Origin: Eledone cirrhosa
Taxonomy: Eukaryota
Direction of reading: 5' to 3'
DNA length: 64,000 bases
Assembly: GCA_964016885.1 (NCBI GenBank)
Contig: OZ024740.1
Location: forward strand, 25,792,001 to 25,856,000
The notes beneath the pieces are model-generated. The model saw only the letters and a program-made list of their open reading frames with translations. It did no database searches and was not told the origin of the DNA. Numbering within the stretch: position 1 is the stretch's first letter; every line of letters begins with the position of its first letter. A program made the translations under genes and the position numbers. Of the stretch, positions 1 through 8,351 are shown piece after piece.

Positions 1-3000
1 AGTTGTAGTTACTTCTATTGTAGTTGTAGTTATTTCTATTGTAGTTGTAGTTACTTCTATTGTAGTTGTAGTTACTTCTATTGTAGTTGTAGTTACTTCT
101 ATTGTAGTTGTAGTTACTTCTATTGTAGTTGTAGTTATTTCTATTGTAGATGTAGTTACTTCTATTGTAGTTGTAGTTATTTCTATTGTAGTTGTAGTTA
201 CTTCTCTTGTAGTTGTAGTTACTTCTATCGTAGTTGTAGTTACTTCTATTGTAGTTGTAGTTACTTCTATTGTAGTTGTAGTTAATTCTATTGTAGTTGT
301 AGTTACTTCTATTGTAGTTGTAGTTACTTCTATTGTAGTTGTAGTTACTTCTATTGTAGTTGTAGTTACTTCTAGTGTAGTTGTAATTAAGTCTATTGTA
401 GTTGTAGTTACTTCTATTGTAGTTGTAGATACTTCTATTGTAGTTGTATATACTTGTATTGTAGTTGTAGTTACTTCTATTGTAGTTGTAGTTACTTCTA
501 TTGTAGTTGTAGTTACTTCTATTGTAGTTGTAGATACTCCTATTGTAGTTGTAGTTACTTCTATTGTAGTTGTAGTTACTTCTATTGTAGTTGTAGTTAC
601 TTCTATTGTAGTTGTATTTACTTCTATTGTAGTTGTAGATACTTCTATTGTAGTTGTAGTTACTTCTATTGTAGTTGTAGTTATTTCTATTGTAGTTGTA
701 GTTACTTCTATTGTAGTTGTATTTACTTCTATTGTAGTTGTAGATACTTCTATTGCAGTTGTAGTTACTTCTATTGTAGTTGTAGTTACTTCTATTGTAG
801 TTGTAGTTATTTCTATTGTAGTTGTAGATACTCCTATTGTAGTTGTAGATACTTCTATTGTAGATGTAGATACTTCTATTGTAGTTGTAGAAGCTTCTAT
901 TGTAGATGTTGTTACTCCTATTGTAGTTGTAGTTACTTCTATTGTAGTGGTAGTTACTTCTATTGTAGTTGTAGTTACTTCTTTGTAGTTGTAGTTACTT
1001 CTATTGTAGTTGTAGATACTCCTATTGTAGTTGTAGTTACTTCTATTGTAGTCGTAGATACTTCTATTGTAGTTGTAGTTATTTCTATTGTAGTTGTAGT
1101 TACTTCTCTTGTAGTTGTCGTTACTTCTATTGTTGTTGTAGTTACTTCTATTGTAGTTGTAGTTACTTCTATTGTAGTTGTAGTTACTTCTATTGTAGTT
1201 GTAGTTATTTCTATTGTAGGTGCAGTTACTTCTATTGTAGTTGTAGTTACTTCTATTGTAGGTGTAGTTACTTCTATTGTAGTTGTAGTTACTTCTATTG
1301 TAGTTGTAGTTATTTCTATTGTAGTTGTAGTTACTTCTATTGTAGTTGTAGTTACTTCTATTGTAGTTGTAGTTACTTCTATTGTAGTTGTAGTTACTTC
1401 TATTGTAGTTGTAGTTACTTCTACTGTAGTTGTAGTTACTTCTATTGTAGTTGTAGTTATTTCTATTGTAGTTGTAGTTACTTCTATTGTAGTTGTAGTT
1501 ACTTCTATTGTATTTGTAGTTACTTCTATTGTAGTTGTAGTTACTTCTATTGTAGTTGTAGTTACTTCTATTGTAGTTGTAGTTACTTCTATTGTAGTTG
1601 TAGTTACTTCTATTGTAGTTGTAGTTACTTCTATTGTAGTTGTAGTTACTTCTATTGTAGTTGTAGTTATTTCTATTGTAGTTGTAATTACTTCTATTGT
1701 AGTTGTAGTTGTTTCTATTGTAGTTGTAGTTACTTCTATTGTAGTTGTAGTTACTTCTATTGTAGTTGTAGTTATTTCTATTGTAGTTGTAGTTACTTCT
1801 ATTGTAGTTGTAGTTACTTCTATTGTATTTGTAGTTACTTCTATTGTAGTTGTAGTTACTTCTATTGTAGTTGTAGTTATTTCTATTTTAGTTGTAGATA
1901 CTTCTATTGTAGTTGTAGTTACTTCTATTGTAGTTGTAGTTACTTCTATTGTAGTTGTAGTTACTTCTATTGTAGTTGTAGTTACTTCTATTGTAGTTGT
2001 AGTTATTTCTATTGTAGATGTAGTTACTTCTATTGTAGTTGTAGTTATTTCTATTGTAGTTGTAGTTACTTCTCTTGTAGTTGTAGTTACTTCTATTGTA
2101 GTTGTAGTTACTTCTATTGTAGTTGTAGTTACTTCTATTGTAGTTGTAGTTACTTCTATTGTAGTTGTATTTATTTCTATTGTAGTTGTAGTTACTTCTA
2201 TTGTAGTTGTAGTTACTTCTATTGTAGTTGTAGTTACTTCTATTGTAGTTGTAGTTATTTCTATTGTAGTTGTAGTTACTTCTATTGTAGTTGTAGTTAC
2301 TTCTATTGCAGTTGTAGTTACTTCTATTGTAGTTGTAGTTACTTATCTTGTAGTTGTAGTTATTTCTATTGTACTTGTAGTTACTTCTCTTGTAGTTGTA
2401 GTTACTTCTATTGTAGTTGTAGTTATTTCTATTGTAGTTGTAGTTACTTCTATTGTAGTTGTAGTTACTTCTATTGTAGATGTAGTTACTTCTATTGTAG
2501 TTGTAGTTACTTCTATTGTAGTTGTAGTTACTTCTATTATAGTTGTATTTACTTCTATTGTAGTTGTAGTTACTTCTATTGTAGTTGTAGTTATTTCTAT
2601 TGTAGTTGTAGTTACTTCTATTGTAGTTGTAGTGACTTCTATTGCAGTTGTAGTTACTTCTATTGTAGTTGTAGTTATTTCTATTGTAGTAGTAGTTACT
2701 TGTATTGTAGTTGTAATTAAGTCTATTGTAGTTGTAGTTACTTCTATTGTAGTTGTAGTTACTTCTATTGTAGTTGTAGTTATTTCTATTGTAGTAGTAG
2801 TTACTTGTATTGTAGTTGTAATTAAGTCTATTGTAGTTGTAGTTACTTCTATTGTAGTTGTAGTTACTTCTCTTGTAGTTGTAGTTACTTCTATTGTACT
2901 TGTAGTTATTTCTATTGTAGTTGTAGATACTCCTATTGTAGTTGTAGATACTTCTATTGTAGATGTAGATACTTCTATTGTAGTTGTAGAAGCTTCTATT

Positions 3001-6000
3001 GTAGATGTTGTTACTCCTATTGTAGTTGTAGTTACTTCTAGTGTAGTGGTAGTTACTTCTATTGTAGTTGTAGTTACTTCTATTGTAGTTGTAGTTACTT
3101 CTATTGTAGTTGTAGATACTCCTATTGTAGTTGTAGTTACTTCTATTGTAGTTGTAGATACTTCTATTGTAGTTGTAGTTATTTCTATTGTAGTTGTAGT
3201 TACTTCTCTTGTAGTTGTCGTTACTTCTATTGTTGTTGTAGTTACTTCTATTGTAGTTGTAGTTACTTCTATTGTAGTTGTAGTTACTTCTATTGTAGTT
3301 GTAGTTATTTCTATTGTAGGTGCAGTTACTTCTATTGTAGTTGTAGTTACTTCTATTGTAGTTGTAGTTACTTCTATTGTAGTTGTAGTTACTTCTATTG
3401 TAGTTGTAGTTATTTCTATTGTAGTTGTAGTTACTTCTATTGTAGTTGTAGTTACTTCTATTGCAGTTGTAGTTACTTCTATTGTAGTTGTAGTTACTTC
3501 TCTTGTAGTTGTAGTTATTTCTATTGTACTTGTAGTTATTTCTATTGTAGTTGTAGTTATTTCTATTGTAGTTGTAGTTACTTCTCTTGTAGTTGTAGTT
3601 ACTTCTATTGTAGTTGTAGTTATTTCTATTGTAGTTGTAGTTACTTCTATTGTAGTTGTAGTTACTTCTATTGTAGTTGTAGTTACTGCTATTGTAGTTG
3701 TAGTTACTTCTATTGTAGTTGTAGATACTTCTATTGCAGTTGTAGTTATTTCTATAGCAGTTGTAGATACTCCTATTGTAGTTTTAGATACTTCTATTGT
3801 AGATGTAGATACTTATATTGTAGTTGTAGAAGCTTCTATTGTAGTTGTAGTTATTTCTATTGTACGTGTAGTTACTTCTATTGTAGTTGTAGTTACTTCT
3901 ATTGTAGGTGTAGTTACTTCTATTGTAGTTGTAGTTACTTCTATTGTAGTTGTAGTTACTTCTATTGTAGTTGTAGTTACTTCTATTGTAGTTGTAGTTA
4001 CTTCTATTGTAGTTGTAGTTACTTCTATTGTAGTTGTAGATACTTCTATTGTAGTTGTAGTTACTTCTATTGTAGTTGTAGTTATTTCTATTGTAGTTGT
4101 AGTTACTTCTATTGTAGTTGTATTTACTTCTATTGTAGTTGTAGATACTTCTATTGTAGTTGTAGTTACTTCTATTGTAGTTGTAGTTACTTCTATTGTA
4201 GTTGTAGTTATTTCTATTGTAGTTGTAGATACTCCTATTGTAGTTGTAGATACTTCTATTGTAGATGTAGATACTTCTATTGTAGTTGTAGTTACTTCTA
4301 TTGTAGTTGTAGTTACTTCTATTGTAGTTGTAGTTACTTCTATTGTAGTTGTAGTTATTTCTATTGTAGCTGTAGTTATTTCTATTGTAGTTGTAATTAC
4401 TTCTATTGTAGTTGTAGTTACTTCTATTGTAGTTGTAGTTACTTCTATTGTAGTTGTAGTTACTTCTATTGTAGTTGTAGTTATTTCTATTGTAGTTGTA
4501 GTTACTTCTATTGTAGTTGTAGTTACTTCTATTGTATTTGTAGTTACTTCTATTGTAGTTGTAGTTACTTCTATTGTAGTTGTAGTTATTTCTATTGTAG
4601 TTGTAGTTACTTCTATTGTAGTTGTAGTTACTTCTATTGTAGTTGTAGTTACTTCTATTGTAGTTGTAGTTACTTCTATTGTAGTTGTAGTTATTTCTAT
4701 TGTAGATGTAGTTACTTCTATTGTAGTTGTAGTTATTTCTATTGTAGTTGTAGTTACTTCTCTTGTAGTTGTAGTTACTTCTATTGTAGTTGTAGTTACT
4801 TCTATTGTAGTTGTAGTTACTTCTATTGTAGTTGTAGTTACTTCTATTGTAGTTGTAGTTATTTCTATTGTAGTTGTAGTTACTTCTATTGTAGTTGTAG
4901 TTACTTCTATTGTAGTTGTATTTACTTCTATTGTAGTTGTAGTTACTTCTATTGTAGTTGTAGTTATTTCTATTGTAGTTGTAGTTATTTCTATTGTAGT
5001 TGTAGTTATTTCTATTGTAGTTGTAGTTACATCTCTTGTAGTTGTAGTTACTTCTATTGTAGTTGTAGTTATTTCTATTGTAGTTGTAGTTACTTCTCTT
5101 GTAGTTGTAGTTATTTCTATTGTACTTGTAATTATTTCTATTGTAGTTGTAGTTATTTCTATTGTAGTTGTAGTTACTACTCTTGTAGTTGTAGTTACTT
5201 CTATTGTAGTTGTAGTTATTTCTATTGTAGTTGTAGTTACTTCTATTGTAGTTGTAGTTACTTCTATTGTAGTTGTAGTTACTGCTATTGTAGTTGTAGT
5301 TACTTCTATTGTAGTTGTAGATACTTCTATTGCAGTTGTAGTTATTTCTATTGCAGTTGTAGATACTCCTATTGTAGTTTTAGATACTTCTATTGTAGAT
5401 GTAGATACTTATATTGTAGTTGTAGAAGCTTCTATTGTAGTTGTAGTTATTTCTATTGTAGGTGTAGTTACTTCTATTGTAGTTGTAGTTACTTCTATTG
5501 TAGGTGTAGTTACTTCTATTGTAGTTGTAGTTACTTCTATTGTAGTTGTAGTTACTTCTATTGTAGTTGTAGTTACTTCTATTGTAGTTGTAGTTACTTC
5601 TATTGTAGTTGTAGTTACTTCTCTTGTAGTTGTAGTTACTTCTATTGTACTTGTAGTTATTTCTATTGTAGTTGTAGTTATTTCTATTGTAGTTGTAGTT
5701 ACTTCTCTTGTAGTTGTAGTTACTTCTATTGTAGTTGTAGTTATTTCTATTGTAGTTGTAGTTACTTCTATTGTAGTTGTATTTACTTCTAGTGTAGTTG
5801 TAATTAAGTCTATTGTAGTTGTAGTTACTTCTATTGTAGTTGTAGATACTTCTATTGTAGTTGTAGATACTTGTATTGTAGTTGTTGTTACTTCTATTGT
5901 AGTTGTAGTTACTTCTATTGTAGTTGTAGTTACTTCTATTGTAGTTGTAGATACTCCTATTGTAGTTGTAGTTACTTCTATTGTAGTTGTAGTTACTTCT

Positions 6001-6209
6001 ATTGTAGTTGTAGTTACTTCTATTGTAGTTGTAGTTACTTCTATTGTAGTTGTAGATACTTCTATTGTAGTTGTAGTTACTTCTATTGTAGTTGTAGTTA
6101 TTTCTATTGTAGTTGTAGTTACTTCTATTGTAGTTGTATTTACTTCTATTGTAGTTGTAGATACTTCTATTGTAGTTGTAGTTACTTCTATTGTAGTTGT
6201 AGTTACTTC
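1..6209. repeat. 21-bp tandem satellite array, left segment (consensus TTGTAGTTGTAGTTACTTCTA); continues beyond the window start
   Basis: Uninterrupted head-to-tail 21-mers with recurrent single-base variants (GAT for GTT, ATT for ACT, CCT for TCT, CTT for ATT). The monomer contains two TTGTAG subrepeats and its consensus is 11T/4G/4A/2C. Confidence 0.99.
6206..6209 (+). other. Left target-site duplication CTTC (4 bp)
   Basis: AGTTA-CTTC|TGTAGCGG on the left and CGCTATA|CTTC-TATTGTAG on the right. Removing the element and one CTTC restores a perfect satellite monomer. Confidence 0.85.
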
Positions 6210-6232
6210 TGTAGCGGTTGTCTCCCTTGTTT

Positions 6233-6330
6233 TGATTGGGGTCTGGACGGGAGGTGGAGCCCTTTCTGCAACTTCCGGTCGGAGCCCTATAGAACTGGCG
6301 GCTTTGGACTTCCTCTCTCTCTTTGCCTTT
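6233..6330 (+). promoter_or_regulatory. Putative Pol II promoter in U3 of the LTR (also present at +1772 in the 3' LTR)
   Basis: Ordered motifs: inverted CCAAT box TGATTGG (6233..6239), G-rich GGGAGGTGGAG (6249..6259), ETS-type ACTTCCGG (6271..6278), TATA-like TATAGAA (6288..6294), and a pyrimidine tract ~20-40 bp downstream as a candidate start region. These are motif matches only. Confidence 0.5.
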
Positions 6331-6508
6331 TCGGCACCAGGTCCAGAGTCTTCTCATTTGGCTCTGCCATTAATTTGGCCAACAGGCGCCTGGCTAAGGC
6401 CAGGCGCCCTCTGCCAGCCACGTTTGCCTGGCAATCAAAACGGTAACTACTAACTTTGTTTCATTCTAACATCTATCTTTGACATGTCAAGTATTCTATC
6501 TACCGTTA

Positions 6509-6546
6509 ATTAAATATTATTTACACAAACATTGTCTCGTTTTGTT
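6509..6546 (+). terminator. Putative polyadenylation signal of the LTR (ATTAAA plus downstream GT-rich element); the functional copy would be 8281..8318 in the 3' LTR
   Basis: ATTAAA at 6509..6514, CA dinucleotides ~12-17 nt later, then TTGTCTCGTTTTGTT at 6532..6546. The position fits an R/U5 boundary. Confidence 0.55.
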
Positions 6547-6576
6547 ACATTCATACAACCAGTAATCCCGCTATAT

Positions 6577-6608
6577 TGGTAACCCTAACGTGATACGAAC
6601 ACGCAGCC
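6577..6608 (+). other. Primer-binding site complementary to the tRNA-Trp 3' end, extended to ~32 nt
   Basis: TGGTAACCCTAACGTGAT matches the canonical tRNA-Trp PBS TGGTGACCCCGACGTGAT at 15/18. It is followed by A-CGAACACGCAGCC, which continues the reverse complement of metazoan tRNA-Trp (T-CGAACACGCAGCC, recalled sequence). Confidence 0.88.
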
Positions 6609-6614
6609 GTTCAT

Positions 6615-6633
6615 CGCTATAAGTGGTCACCCC
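6615..6633 (+). other. Second degenerate LTR-end plus PBS-like copy
   Basis: CGCTATA-AG-TGGTCACCCC repeats the LTR terminus CGCTATA followed by a 9/10 match to TGGTGACCCC. Confidence 0.6.
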
Positions 6634-6793
6634 CCCAAAAAAAGAAAAAAATAGCACATCTGGTTTTGTGAGTAACATTACGAATACACAGCAAATTTAG
6701 CGACAAACTATGAAAATACTCAAGGACACGCACACACGCACATGTGGAATTCGCGCAGACATACTTTTTCTCTCACGCATCAATTAACTGTCG

Positions 6794-6943
6794 CATTTCA
6801 CCAATATATATATATATATGTTTCTCGTTTCTTACAACGAACACTTTCAAAACAAAAAAAAAAAAAAACATTTCACGATATATATATATATATGTTTCTC
6901 GTTTCTTACAACGAACTCTTTCAAAACACAAAAAAAAAAAAAA
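6794..6943 (+). repeat. ~75-bp tandem duplication (2 copies) inside the element, each with an (AT)n run and a poly-A run
   Basis: CATTTCAC..(AT)n-GTTTCTCGTTTCTTACAACGAAC[A/T]CTTTCAAAACA-(A)n occurs from 6794 and from 6869. Confidence 0.92.
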
Positions 6944-7506
6944 GAAATTTGATATTCTTTAAAAAACATTTCAACAGGAACATTTATTTTCGATGAACCA
7001 TTGCCTTTTGTTCTTCGTTTTCTTCATCGTTCTAGTTTTTTTTTTTTTTTTCCAAAAGTTCACACCTATAATTATGCTGATTGAAGCCTTTCTTTTTCAT
7101 CATTGTCACTTTCAAAATTGCACTATCATTTTCTCGCGCGTTAGAAATATTTTTTTTCAACCTTGTATTGGCACGTGTAGGCAGCATAAATTCTCGATTC
7201 ACTGAGATGTCTTTACTCACAGACAGCCGCACGCCATTTATCACCAGGGATTCTTCAGCCTTAAGCTATATTCTTCTATTTGCCGGTTTATAAATTTACA
7301 ATGTAAATTTACCGTTGATAACCGCGCATTTATTAAGAATGCTTATTTCTCTGGTCGCTGGCCTCTTGACCCTTCCAGGTCAACGCATTCTCAACATCGA
7401 CCATCAACTTCGGCTGCTATTTCTAGCACTTTGCGCAACTCATTTTTTTCTAAAAAAAAAATTTTTTACTGTGAATTTAAACACCGAATACGCTCACTCA
7501 GCGAGA

Positions 7507-7551
7507 CAACAGCAGCAGCAACAGCAGCAGCAACAGCAGCAGCAACAGCAA
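7507..7551 (+). repeat. Compound CAA/CAG trinucleotide microsatellite, (CAA CAG CAG CAG)3 CAA CAG CAA
   Basis: 15 consecutive CAR triplets read directly, with a degenerate continuation to ~7580. Confidence 0.92.
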
Positions 7552-7969
7552 TATAACAGCAACAGCAATACATCAACACAGCTTCACCAAAGCCAGAGAA
7601 TTTATTTTTGCAGCACTCTTCCTGTGAGAAAATCCATTCGGAGGTTGGAAATTTCACGATGTACCACAGAACAGAAACCACCTGCATTCATTCTCTGGAA
7701 CACACTTTCTTTCCTGCTGTCATGTGATTGCACACCTGTGAACTATATTTTGAACTTTGAGCTCTTTTATTACTTTTACTTTATTACATTGTATCTTCGG
7801 GTGATGGATAGATGGATGTCCAGTCGTTCTCTGGCCAAGAGCGGTTGGCTACCTTGATATCTATCATTGATTTTTCCAAACATTCTTTTGTCGTAATTTT
7901 CATGCCTGTTACAACATTCTCGCCAACTTGCTACATATTTTCATTTCGATTTTTATACACTAAAATTCT

Positions 7970-7978
7970 GGCGGGAGG
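7970..7978 (+). other. Polypurine tract (short, one C interruption)
   Basis: GGCGGGAGG lies 3 nt (TTA) upstream of the 3' LTR start. Confidence 0.7.
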
Positions 7979-7981
7979 TTA

Positions 7982-8347
7982 TGTAGCGGTTGTCTCCCTT
8001 GTTTTGATTGGGATCTGGACGGGAGGTGGAGCCCTTTCTGCAACTTCCGGTCGGAGCCCTATAGAACTGGCGGCTTTGGACTTCCTCTCTCTCTTTGCCT
8101 TTTCGGCACCAGGTCCAGAGTCTTCTCATTTGGCTCTGCCATTAATTTGGCCAACAGGCGCCTGGCTAAGGCCAGGCGCCCTCTGCCAGCCACGTTTGCC
8201 TGGCAATCAAAACGGTAACTACTAGCTTTGTTTCATTCTAACATCTATCTTTGACATGTCAAGTATTCTATCTACCGTTAATTAAATATTATTTACACAA
8301 ACATTGTCTCGTTTTGTTACATTCATACAACCAGTAATCTCGCTATA
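7982..8347 (+). repeat. 3' LTR (366 bp)
   Basis: Starts TGTAGCGG, ends TCGCTATA, and is 363/366 identical to the 5' LTR. Confidence 0.95.
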
Positions 8348-8351
8348 CTTC
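8348..8351 (+). other. Right target-site duplication CTTC (4 bp)
   Basis: Immediately follows the LTR end defined by equal LTR length. The LTR's terminal TA also matches the satellite, so a naive alignment would over-call 5-6 bp. Confidence 0.85.

Follow-up and report, generated by a model that had tools for sequence, protein, structure and literature searches.

The locus raises the question of how the primer binding site (PBS) of an LTR element came to continue past its eighteenth nucleotide into further complementarity to tRNA-Trp, and whether the one mismatched base at position 19 is a trace of reverse transcriptase (RT) having copied a modified primer. The stretch analysed, here called the window, is 64 kb of a 21-bp satellite array with a single interruption at 6210-8347, an LTR element of 2138 bp in total (Table 1). 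It has two LTRs, a PBS, a polypurine tract (PPT) and a target-site duplication (TSD) and no gag or pol, and was classified as a non-autonomous LTR retrotransposon. A single spacer base separates the end of the 5' LTR (6575) from the start of the PBS (6577). Coding remnants were looked for in the element and rejected: blastn and tblastn found no gag/pol similarity in the interior, and nothing exceeded the Pfam cut-off in the three of three frames tested. A search of the 3.0-Gb host genome with 6500-6760 returned 1298 candidate matches, of which 40 were scored at 97-100%. The interior also contains a 74-bp tandem duplication (6794-6943) and a CAG/CAA microsatellite (7507-7568). The surrounding satellite (1-6209 and 8348-64000) has a strong strand skew; the long reading frames without stops are artefacts of the repeat, and from about 16,000 on they are broken periodically, a hint of higher-order units.

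Table 1. Features of the LTR element and its borders, in window coordinates
Coordinates	Strand	Feature	Remark
6206..6209	+	Left TSD, CTTC, part of the satellite unit	
6210..6575	+	5' LTR, 366 bp; TG start, TA end, 8-bp imperfect terminal inverted repeat	
6577..6594	+	18-nt tRNA-Trp PBS; host tRNA mismatched at positions 5, 10 (G:U wobble) and 11	
6595..6595	+	Position 19: A for T, facing tRNA A58	A in 531 genomic sites
6596..6608	+	13-nt extension complementary to tRNA-Trp 45-57 (variable loop, 5' T-stem, T-loop)	
6609..6623	+	Near-copy of LTR 3' end plus 2-nt spacer; putative re-priming site of over-extended plus strand	
6624..6633	+	Decayed second (older) PBS	
6634..7969	+	Non-coding internal region	gag/pol similarity absent
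7970..7978	+	Polypurine tract	Comparable tracts in gag-pol families
7982..8347	+	3' LTR, 363/366 identical to 5' LTR	
8348..8351	+	Right TSD, CTTC	

To place the site on the host tRNA, positions were counted from the tRNA 3' end. Pattern searching gave 65 matches to host tRNA-Trp(CCA) genes genome-wide; ARAGORN confirmed Trp in five of the nine loci given to it, and the remaining four were CCA-ended partial copies. Window positions 6577-6608 are complementary to the last 32 nt of one host tRNA-Trp gene (L045) with CCA added, differing at 5, 10, 11 and 19. The 13 positions from 20 to 32 all match, for which the chance in a fixed register is about 2e-9, and the match stops after 32; isodecoders differ at positions 20 and 30, and these differences were scored as matches throughout. 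The sequence-only reading had reported this sequence and register, a complementarity to CCA-bearing tRNA-Trp beyond position 19 and a mismatch at 6595 opposite A58, and the host gene agreed with it in all three respects, position 19 being A58 in the alignment. That reading would have failed on a host gene with T at position 58, and the matches read as genes have A58. A non-A base at 58 was present in five of the 65 matches, and the four inspected were LTR-linked partial copies. CCA was encoded in none of the tRNA-Trp genes inspected and is present in the element, which counts for copying of the mature tRNA. ARAGORN and Rfam identified no tRNA gene or known RNA family at 6577-6608, and neither a cloverleaf nor a tRNA 5' half is present there, so that a tRNA gene or full-length tRNA retrocopy was rejected. 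A host tRNA-Trp variant behind the PBS mismatches was rejected as well, the position-10 variant occurring in one gene and the position-5 variant in none by exact pattern. More than 40 tRNA-Trp genes form a tandem cluster (G000:C4:353.39-353.49 Mb), mostly of a T-loop variant that mismatches the window family at position 20; one match in this array (C4:353469747) has T at 58.

The window site is one member of a recurrent phenomenon. Counting and defining events by hand, we observed directly at least 34 junction-distinct events in this genome in which 27-50 nt of tRNA-Trp lie behind an LTR end or LTR-like end, one decayed case (L258) being additional to the 34. Every copy begins at CCA exactly in PBS register, and none has a poly(A). 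The search patterns detect only extensions reaching about position 27, and the apparent ends, which include 1-4 nt of microhomology, fall at 27-34 in nine events, at 36-42 in 20, at 43-46 in none, at 47-50 in five and beyond in none. G37 lies at position 40 and G26 at position 51; the ends thus cluster visibly at G37 and just before G26, and no event passes G26. Errors at position 40 are frequent in copies that reach it (L199, L202, L205, L222), and L216 skips it. A58, G37 and G26 are methylated residues of eukaryotic tRNA-Trp, and we take them to be methylated in this host as well.

At position 19, the 34 events have T in 24, A in four, G in three and C in one, and two are polymorphic. Since T was kept in 24 of 34, most read-through left no error, and the A at 6595 alone proves little. 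To remove bias, the search was repeated with positions 19-27 free, which gave 26 sites; 18 were junction-unique and were used, with L258 (indel) and seven copies of one multi-copy junction left out. A mismatch at position 19 was found in 4 of these 18 sites, compared to 1 of 108 cells at positions 21-26 (p=0.0014), a hotspot seen in the counts themselves. Position 19 also varies within families sharing one junction (T/A and C/A in two other families, A/G in the window's), and L161 and L180 have an inserted G there. Because of this variation, the A at 6595 could equally well be an error made later, at the usual strong-stop position. The suggestion that this base marks read-through was therefore upheld as far as position 19 is a hotspot, and weakened in that the change may postdate the founding event.

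The extensions are distributed unevenly. One LTR group has five different junctions (L206, L209, L210, L220, L223), and three other LTR groups include both plain members of 18-20 nt and extended members. At least four gag-pol families have fixed extensions of 32-40 nt. There are also 184 perfect-PBS sites without an intact extension; 30 were read, a few of them variants of extended families. The trait is therefore not universal among Trp-primed elements, and the possibility that a universal clade feature would remove its novelty did not materialise. Next to a still-perfect 18-mer, the extension was found decayed in older lineages (L242, L243, L255 and L258). An abundant non-coding 'plain' family (L153, L157, L160 and relatives) has post-PBS sequence that may be what strong decay has left of an extension, L258 and L157 having an intermediate appearance. 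Three loci (L203, L213, L233) share one gag-pol interior with a 32-nt extension behind different LTR ends, pointing to LTR swapping between families.

A generic control pattern for other primer tRNAs gave 1683 matches, compared to 1024 with a reversed control. The control matches listed were dominated by one repeat, and the three candidates fetched had neither an LTR pair nor gag-pol. An Rfam tRNA search for the control returned 16 loci. A dispersed tRNA-like repeat with common flanks and varied anticodons (L277, L279-L287), called Ala, Val, Thr or Asp by ARAGORN, is probably a SINE or a Helenus-like element.

The junctions suggest how such copies were integrated. Whole elements were found among the events (L202, L214, L225, L229, L233, L297), and most events consist of one LTR, PBS and extension. 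Other junctions comprise a straight jump into pol (L208, L230), a return to the LTR end through a 3-4-nt microhomology (L204, L207), a fold-back onto the opposite LTR strand (L198, L199, L146, L228) and partial re-copying of the tRNA (L220, L240). The inverted LTRs of L198 and L199 have 4-bp TSDs, with a clean GATA duplication around the inverted LTR pair of L199. The four bases preceding the LTR recurred within 34 nt past the extension end in nine of 18 one-LTR insertions, against a shuffled mean of 3.2; these were 18 of 25 one-LTR sites, those without a recognisable LTR start being left out, and because LTR starts and TSD windows were picked by eye after seeing the data, the p-values are optimistic. 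Such junctions would be expected if integrase had inserted aberrant plus-strand products. Given the one-LTR insertions, fold-backs and deletions into pol, plus-strand over-extension followed by re-priming is the likely cause.

The same kind of copy appears in other organisms too. A single scan of metagenome contigs yielded 11 loci, which were reduced to nine distinct events after L270 (a whole tRNA gene followed by CCA) and L271 (a duplicate of L265) were left out. Base 19 was T in six, C in two and G in one, and the ends were at 32, 33, 36, 37, 39, 45, 49, 50 and 50; L266 has an error at position 40. Among these events, LTR context is shown only for L265/L271, a gag-pol element with the layout PBS, 32 nt, short spacer and second PBS, as in the window. 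In viral contigs the extended tRNA-Trp pattern gave no match.

To follow the extension after its origin, we turned to the window's own family, which has about 530 sites with such an extended PBS. The pattern with A at position 19 occurs at 531 genomic sites (100 were listed and 47 family sites inspected), and the pattern with another base there at 70 sites, all of which were read: 57 T, 11 G and 2 C. Of these, the window family accounts for eight G sites and for no T or C site. The tabulation of base 19 over family copies that had been proposed thus gives A in 531 sites, G in eight and T or C in none. With no T19 revertant among the eight non-A and 531 A family sites, the extension is inherited and not re-copied each cycle. 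Position 19 nevertheless remains active, with G in eight family sites versus no changes at the similar A25. G19 is weakly linked with a tRNA-like PBS (4/8 versus 21/100, p=0.08).

The 18-mer behaves differently from the extension. Among the 100 A19 sites listed, 79 have the position-5 mismatch and 21 the tRNA-like base; mismatches at 5 and 10 occur together in 73, and the window's state (5, 10 and 11) in five. The three mismatches of the sequence-only reading are therefore present in the window, whereas the third (6587) is uncommon, the triple state being found at 5 of the 100 sites listed. On a tree of 50 family copies, built with the primer region left out and without 11 tandem replicates (L019-L029), 13 changes are required to explain the tRNA-like state, and well-supported branches force at least 10 of them. 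Time and again the 18-mer has returned to the sequence of the tRNA, and these directly observed reversions are scattered over the tree; tRNA-templated plus strands are therefore inherited. Recombination between copies could alternatively account for the scatter of PBS states. The extension is older than the PBS mismatches in the window family. A 46-nt unit is repeated once more in three copies (L131, L132, L183), and in L132 and L183 a tRNA-like first unit precedes a family-like second one.

The sequence downstream of the extension bears on how the extension was joined to the element. The near-copy at 6609-6623 has an 11-nt identity with the LTR end of L015 and L188, and its spacer is identical to that at the LTR-PBS junction of L117 and L139. 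The second PBS appears as a 12-nt perfect PBS start in one subfamily (L117, L134, L139, L149). A duplicated LTR end followed by a second PBS is thus seen directly in the element.

We consider it likely that the extra 14 nt are a fossil of a founding round in which the RT of a CsRn1-clade gypsy element passed A58 during plus-strand synthesis, with the A at 6595 likely a methylated-base error. That this A was made by RT, even if after the founding event, we regard as probable. The sequence-only reading had proposed an RT-made copy of some 32 nt of the mature tRNA-Trp with its CCA, which then became fixed. The 34 independent junctions of variable length argue for this, as do the concentration of errors at position 19, the tendency of copies to end near G37 and G26, the RT-type junctions and the similar copies in other organisms.

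The order of RT steps that we infer would be as follows. During plus-strand strong-stop synthesis RT would pass A58, writing T if the base is unmethylated and an error if it is methylated, and would stop further into the tRNA. The over-extended plus strand would realign, or slip back, onto the LTR end of its template, and re-copying of the LTR end and the old PBS would regain a normal end for strand transfer. On both strands the order would now be PBS, extension, LTR-end copy, old PBS; of the two sites, the upstream one would take over as the working PBS, and the old PBS (6624-6633) would decay. From then on, position 18 would be the usual stopping point of RT, and the element RNA would hand down the extension, mostly as a passenger decaying with age. 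Later changes at position 19 would arise where RT adds a base on reaching its usual stop and synthesis then continues from it. A CsRn1-clade gypsy element likely served as the inferred helper of the window family; the interior of the window element and the gag-pol families have nothing in common but the PBS.

Published work speaks partly for and partly against this origin. Retroviral RTs make minor over-extended products ending at tRNA positions 55, 54 and 37, as given in excerpts of PMC13191261. Against it, retroviral products beyond position 54 are said to be unable to complete transfer or integrate (PMC8599865, in part). Also against it, m1A followed 3' by A gave little C signal (G in cDNA) with a laboratory RT, according to the relevant part of PMC4787781, and G makes up three of the eight fixed non-T events, a poor fit to that low published signal.

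The alternative that survives best shares this origin and differs in what kept the extension. It holds that the extension was retained by selection, since it pairs with tRNA-Trp 45-57, which is present only on the full-length primer. The 18-nt PBS would then be free to mutate at positions 5 and 10 and to escape 18-22-nt 3' tRNA fragments while priming was kept, and over-extended plus strands may be rescued by the extension, which would then act as a lentiviral primer over-extension sequence of greater length. When the PBS opens the T-stem it releases a tRNA strand with which the extension could pair. Of the Trp-PBS families found, the one with the most sites (531) combines the extension with a mismatched 18-mer, A5 is present in 79 of the 100 sites listed with no host gene having an A5 variant by exact pattern, and at least four gag-pol families have likewise fixed 32-40 nt. 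By calculation, ignoring unfolding and any base modification, the duplex gains about 28 kcal/mol from the extension, which exceeds the 9-14 that the mismatches cost. Mismatched PBSs also dominate mouse ERV families, where excerpts of PMC7472051 read them as likely escape from tRNA fragments. The 184 perfect-PBS sites without an intact extension argue against selection, however, as do the presence of the extension beside perfect PBSs and its decay in four loci where the 18-mer stays perfect (listed above). The lack of any T19 revertant in the window family indicates that over-extended strands are rarely used there, and the link of G19 with a tRNA-like PBS is weak (p=0.08). We therefore give retention by selection a minor though appreciable chance, and the model of a pairing arm with fragment escape is attractive as a model. 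An earlier suggestion that the extension compensates for the PBS mismatches was rejected as an account of its origin, because the extension occurs as well in copies and families whose 18-mer is perfect; a later benefit for a mismatched PBS is possible. A broader proposal appears doubtful: Trp-primed gypsies would routinely write copies of their modified primer into the germline, leaving a fossil map of m1A58, G37 and G26, such errors would give birth to non-autonomous families, and the window's extension would be a second pairing arm against silencing by 3' tRNA fragments.

A second alternative is that a T-correct read-through made the extension and that the A at position 19 is an ordinary founder substitution unrelated to m1A58. 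It is consistent with T19 in 24 of the 34 events and with the founder having also fixed two unrelated PBS changes, but position 19 is a hotspot both across events and inside families, and we regard it as improbable. The remaining alternative, that the extension is ancient in the whole CsRn1 clade or was captured at the DNA level from a tRNA gene or a LINE-made tRNA retrocopy and not by the element's RT, would suit a trait common to several gag-pol families and a Culex element whose tRNA copies at the PBS were read as a SINE insertion (PMC3286476, in part), but it is largely refuted by the independent junctions and thus very improbable, since lengths and junctions differ even inside one LTR group, many relatives have no extension, and all copies start at CCA in PBS register with no poly(A) and none beyond G26.

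Several known systems resemble parts of what was found. In lentiviruses and spumaviruses a short stretch complementary to the primer tRNA, the primer over-extension sequence, is linked to the passage of RT beyond m1A58 (PMC13191261 and PMC8599865, both in part), and in these excerpts it lies, as here, immediately 3' of the 18-nt PBS and runs through the T-loop. The rule that a PBS has at most 18 nt, on which the sequence-only reading relied, therefore has a known exception (PMC13191261, in part). In the excerpts the lentiviral sequence adds about 4-5 nt, stops short of tRNA position 54 and is conserved for its function as an acceptor, whereas the window extension reaches tRNA position 45 and the longest event position 27. 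Unlike the lentiviral type, the events here have 9-32 extra nt, many independent origins, gypsy retrotransposons as carriers and little sign of reuse; as to acceptor use, T19 revertants are absent from the family and G19 recurs.

Late termination in a tRNA primer, followed by mis-transfer, reportedly gave deleted proviruses with tRNA sequence in the work of Pulsinelli and Temin in 1991. L208 and L230 resemble these deleted vector proviruses, reportedly products of plus-strand strong-stop errors. The vector deletions are said to have been one-round laboratory dead ends, whereas the copies here are germline-fixed and several founded multi-copy families.

The CsRn1 clade of Ty3/gypsy (PwRn1, AgCR) has a tRNA-Trp PBS, a 4-bp TSD and the gag motif CX2HX9CX3C (PMC2582038, in part), and the window element shares the tRNA-Trp PBS and the 4-bp TSD, the length of which was fixed as 4 rather than 5 bp by L236. 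The gag motif was found in 11 of the 15 Trp-PBS gag-pol loci tested and is necessarily absent from the non-coding window element; by Pfam, the Trp-PBS gag-pol families have a DUF7041 gag and then RT, RNase H and integrase, in this order. The window element differs from CsRn1 elements in having no coding sequence, and the excerpted text of PMC2582038 does not mention an extended PBS. In the mouse ERVs ETn, MusD and IAP, the commonest PBS has two mismatches, and perfect PBSs are scattered as tRNA-templated reversions (PMC7472051, in part). A mismatched main PBS with perfect PBSs scattered on the tree is shared with the window family, but the excerpts of PMC7472051 describe no extension past 18 and place the mismatches off modification sites. 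The cqgypsy_1 element of Culex has CCA-ended tRNA copies at the PBS and a duplicated LTR end, read as a SINE insertion (PMC3286476, in part); tRNA-derived sequence is fixed in an LTR element there too, but that excerpt concerns a single case with whole tRNAs. Helenus TRIMs (TRIMp3) have sense tRNA promoter A and B boxes inside the LTR (PMC10886601, in part). In contrast, the tRNA part of the window element is antisense and outside the LTR, and is no tRNA by ARAGORN or Rfam; at 2138 bp the element also exceeds the TRIM length of <1000 bp given in that excerpt.

Retroviral over-extension, about 5 nt in lentiviruses, is known. Searches of the open literature listed no description of recurrent germline-fixed primer copies of 27-50 nt in LTR retrotransposons; subscription papers, Repbase or picture supplements may show them. 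Retroviral work treats far-over-extended plus strands as dead ends, whereas here such products integrate with TSDs, make deletion and mini-elements and found families of hundreds of copies, apparently in other animals as well as in this genome. They offer a germline, in vivo record of RT errors and stops on native tRNA that can be read from assemblies without tRNA-seq, and a concrete route from autonomous to non-autonomous LTR elements. Natural allele pairs, with and without the extension and with matched and mismatched PBSs, are available for the question of tRNA priming versus silencing by tRNA fragments. For annotation, the longer copies resemble tRNA pseudogene halves.

Some members of the window family have unusual arrangements. 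At least 12 element copies with a perfect 18-nt PBS form a tandem array with a spacing of about 5.7 kb (L018-L029, G000:C14:21.37-21.46 Mb). L236 (G000:C1:71733245-71733649) is a TRIM-sized derivative in tandem with a full copy, with one LTR common to both and a 54-bp interior consisting of PBS, extension and PPT. L228 (G000:C10:53056953) is a palindromic insertion in which LTR, PBS and extension stand head to head with their own reverse complement, both arms having A19. Two chimeras in opposite orientation, 41 kb apart within a different satellite (L298, G000:C1:204387593; L299, C1:204429083), have the window-family LTR, PBS and extension joined through a 3-nt overlap to a PBS and LTR that stand in inverted orientation and come from another Trp-primed family, which suggests co-packaging or inversion.
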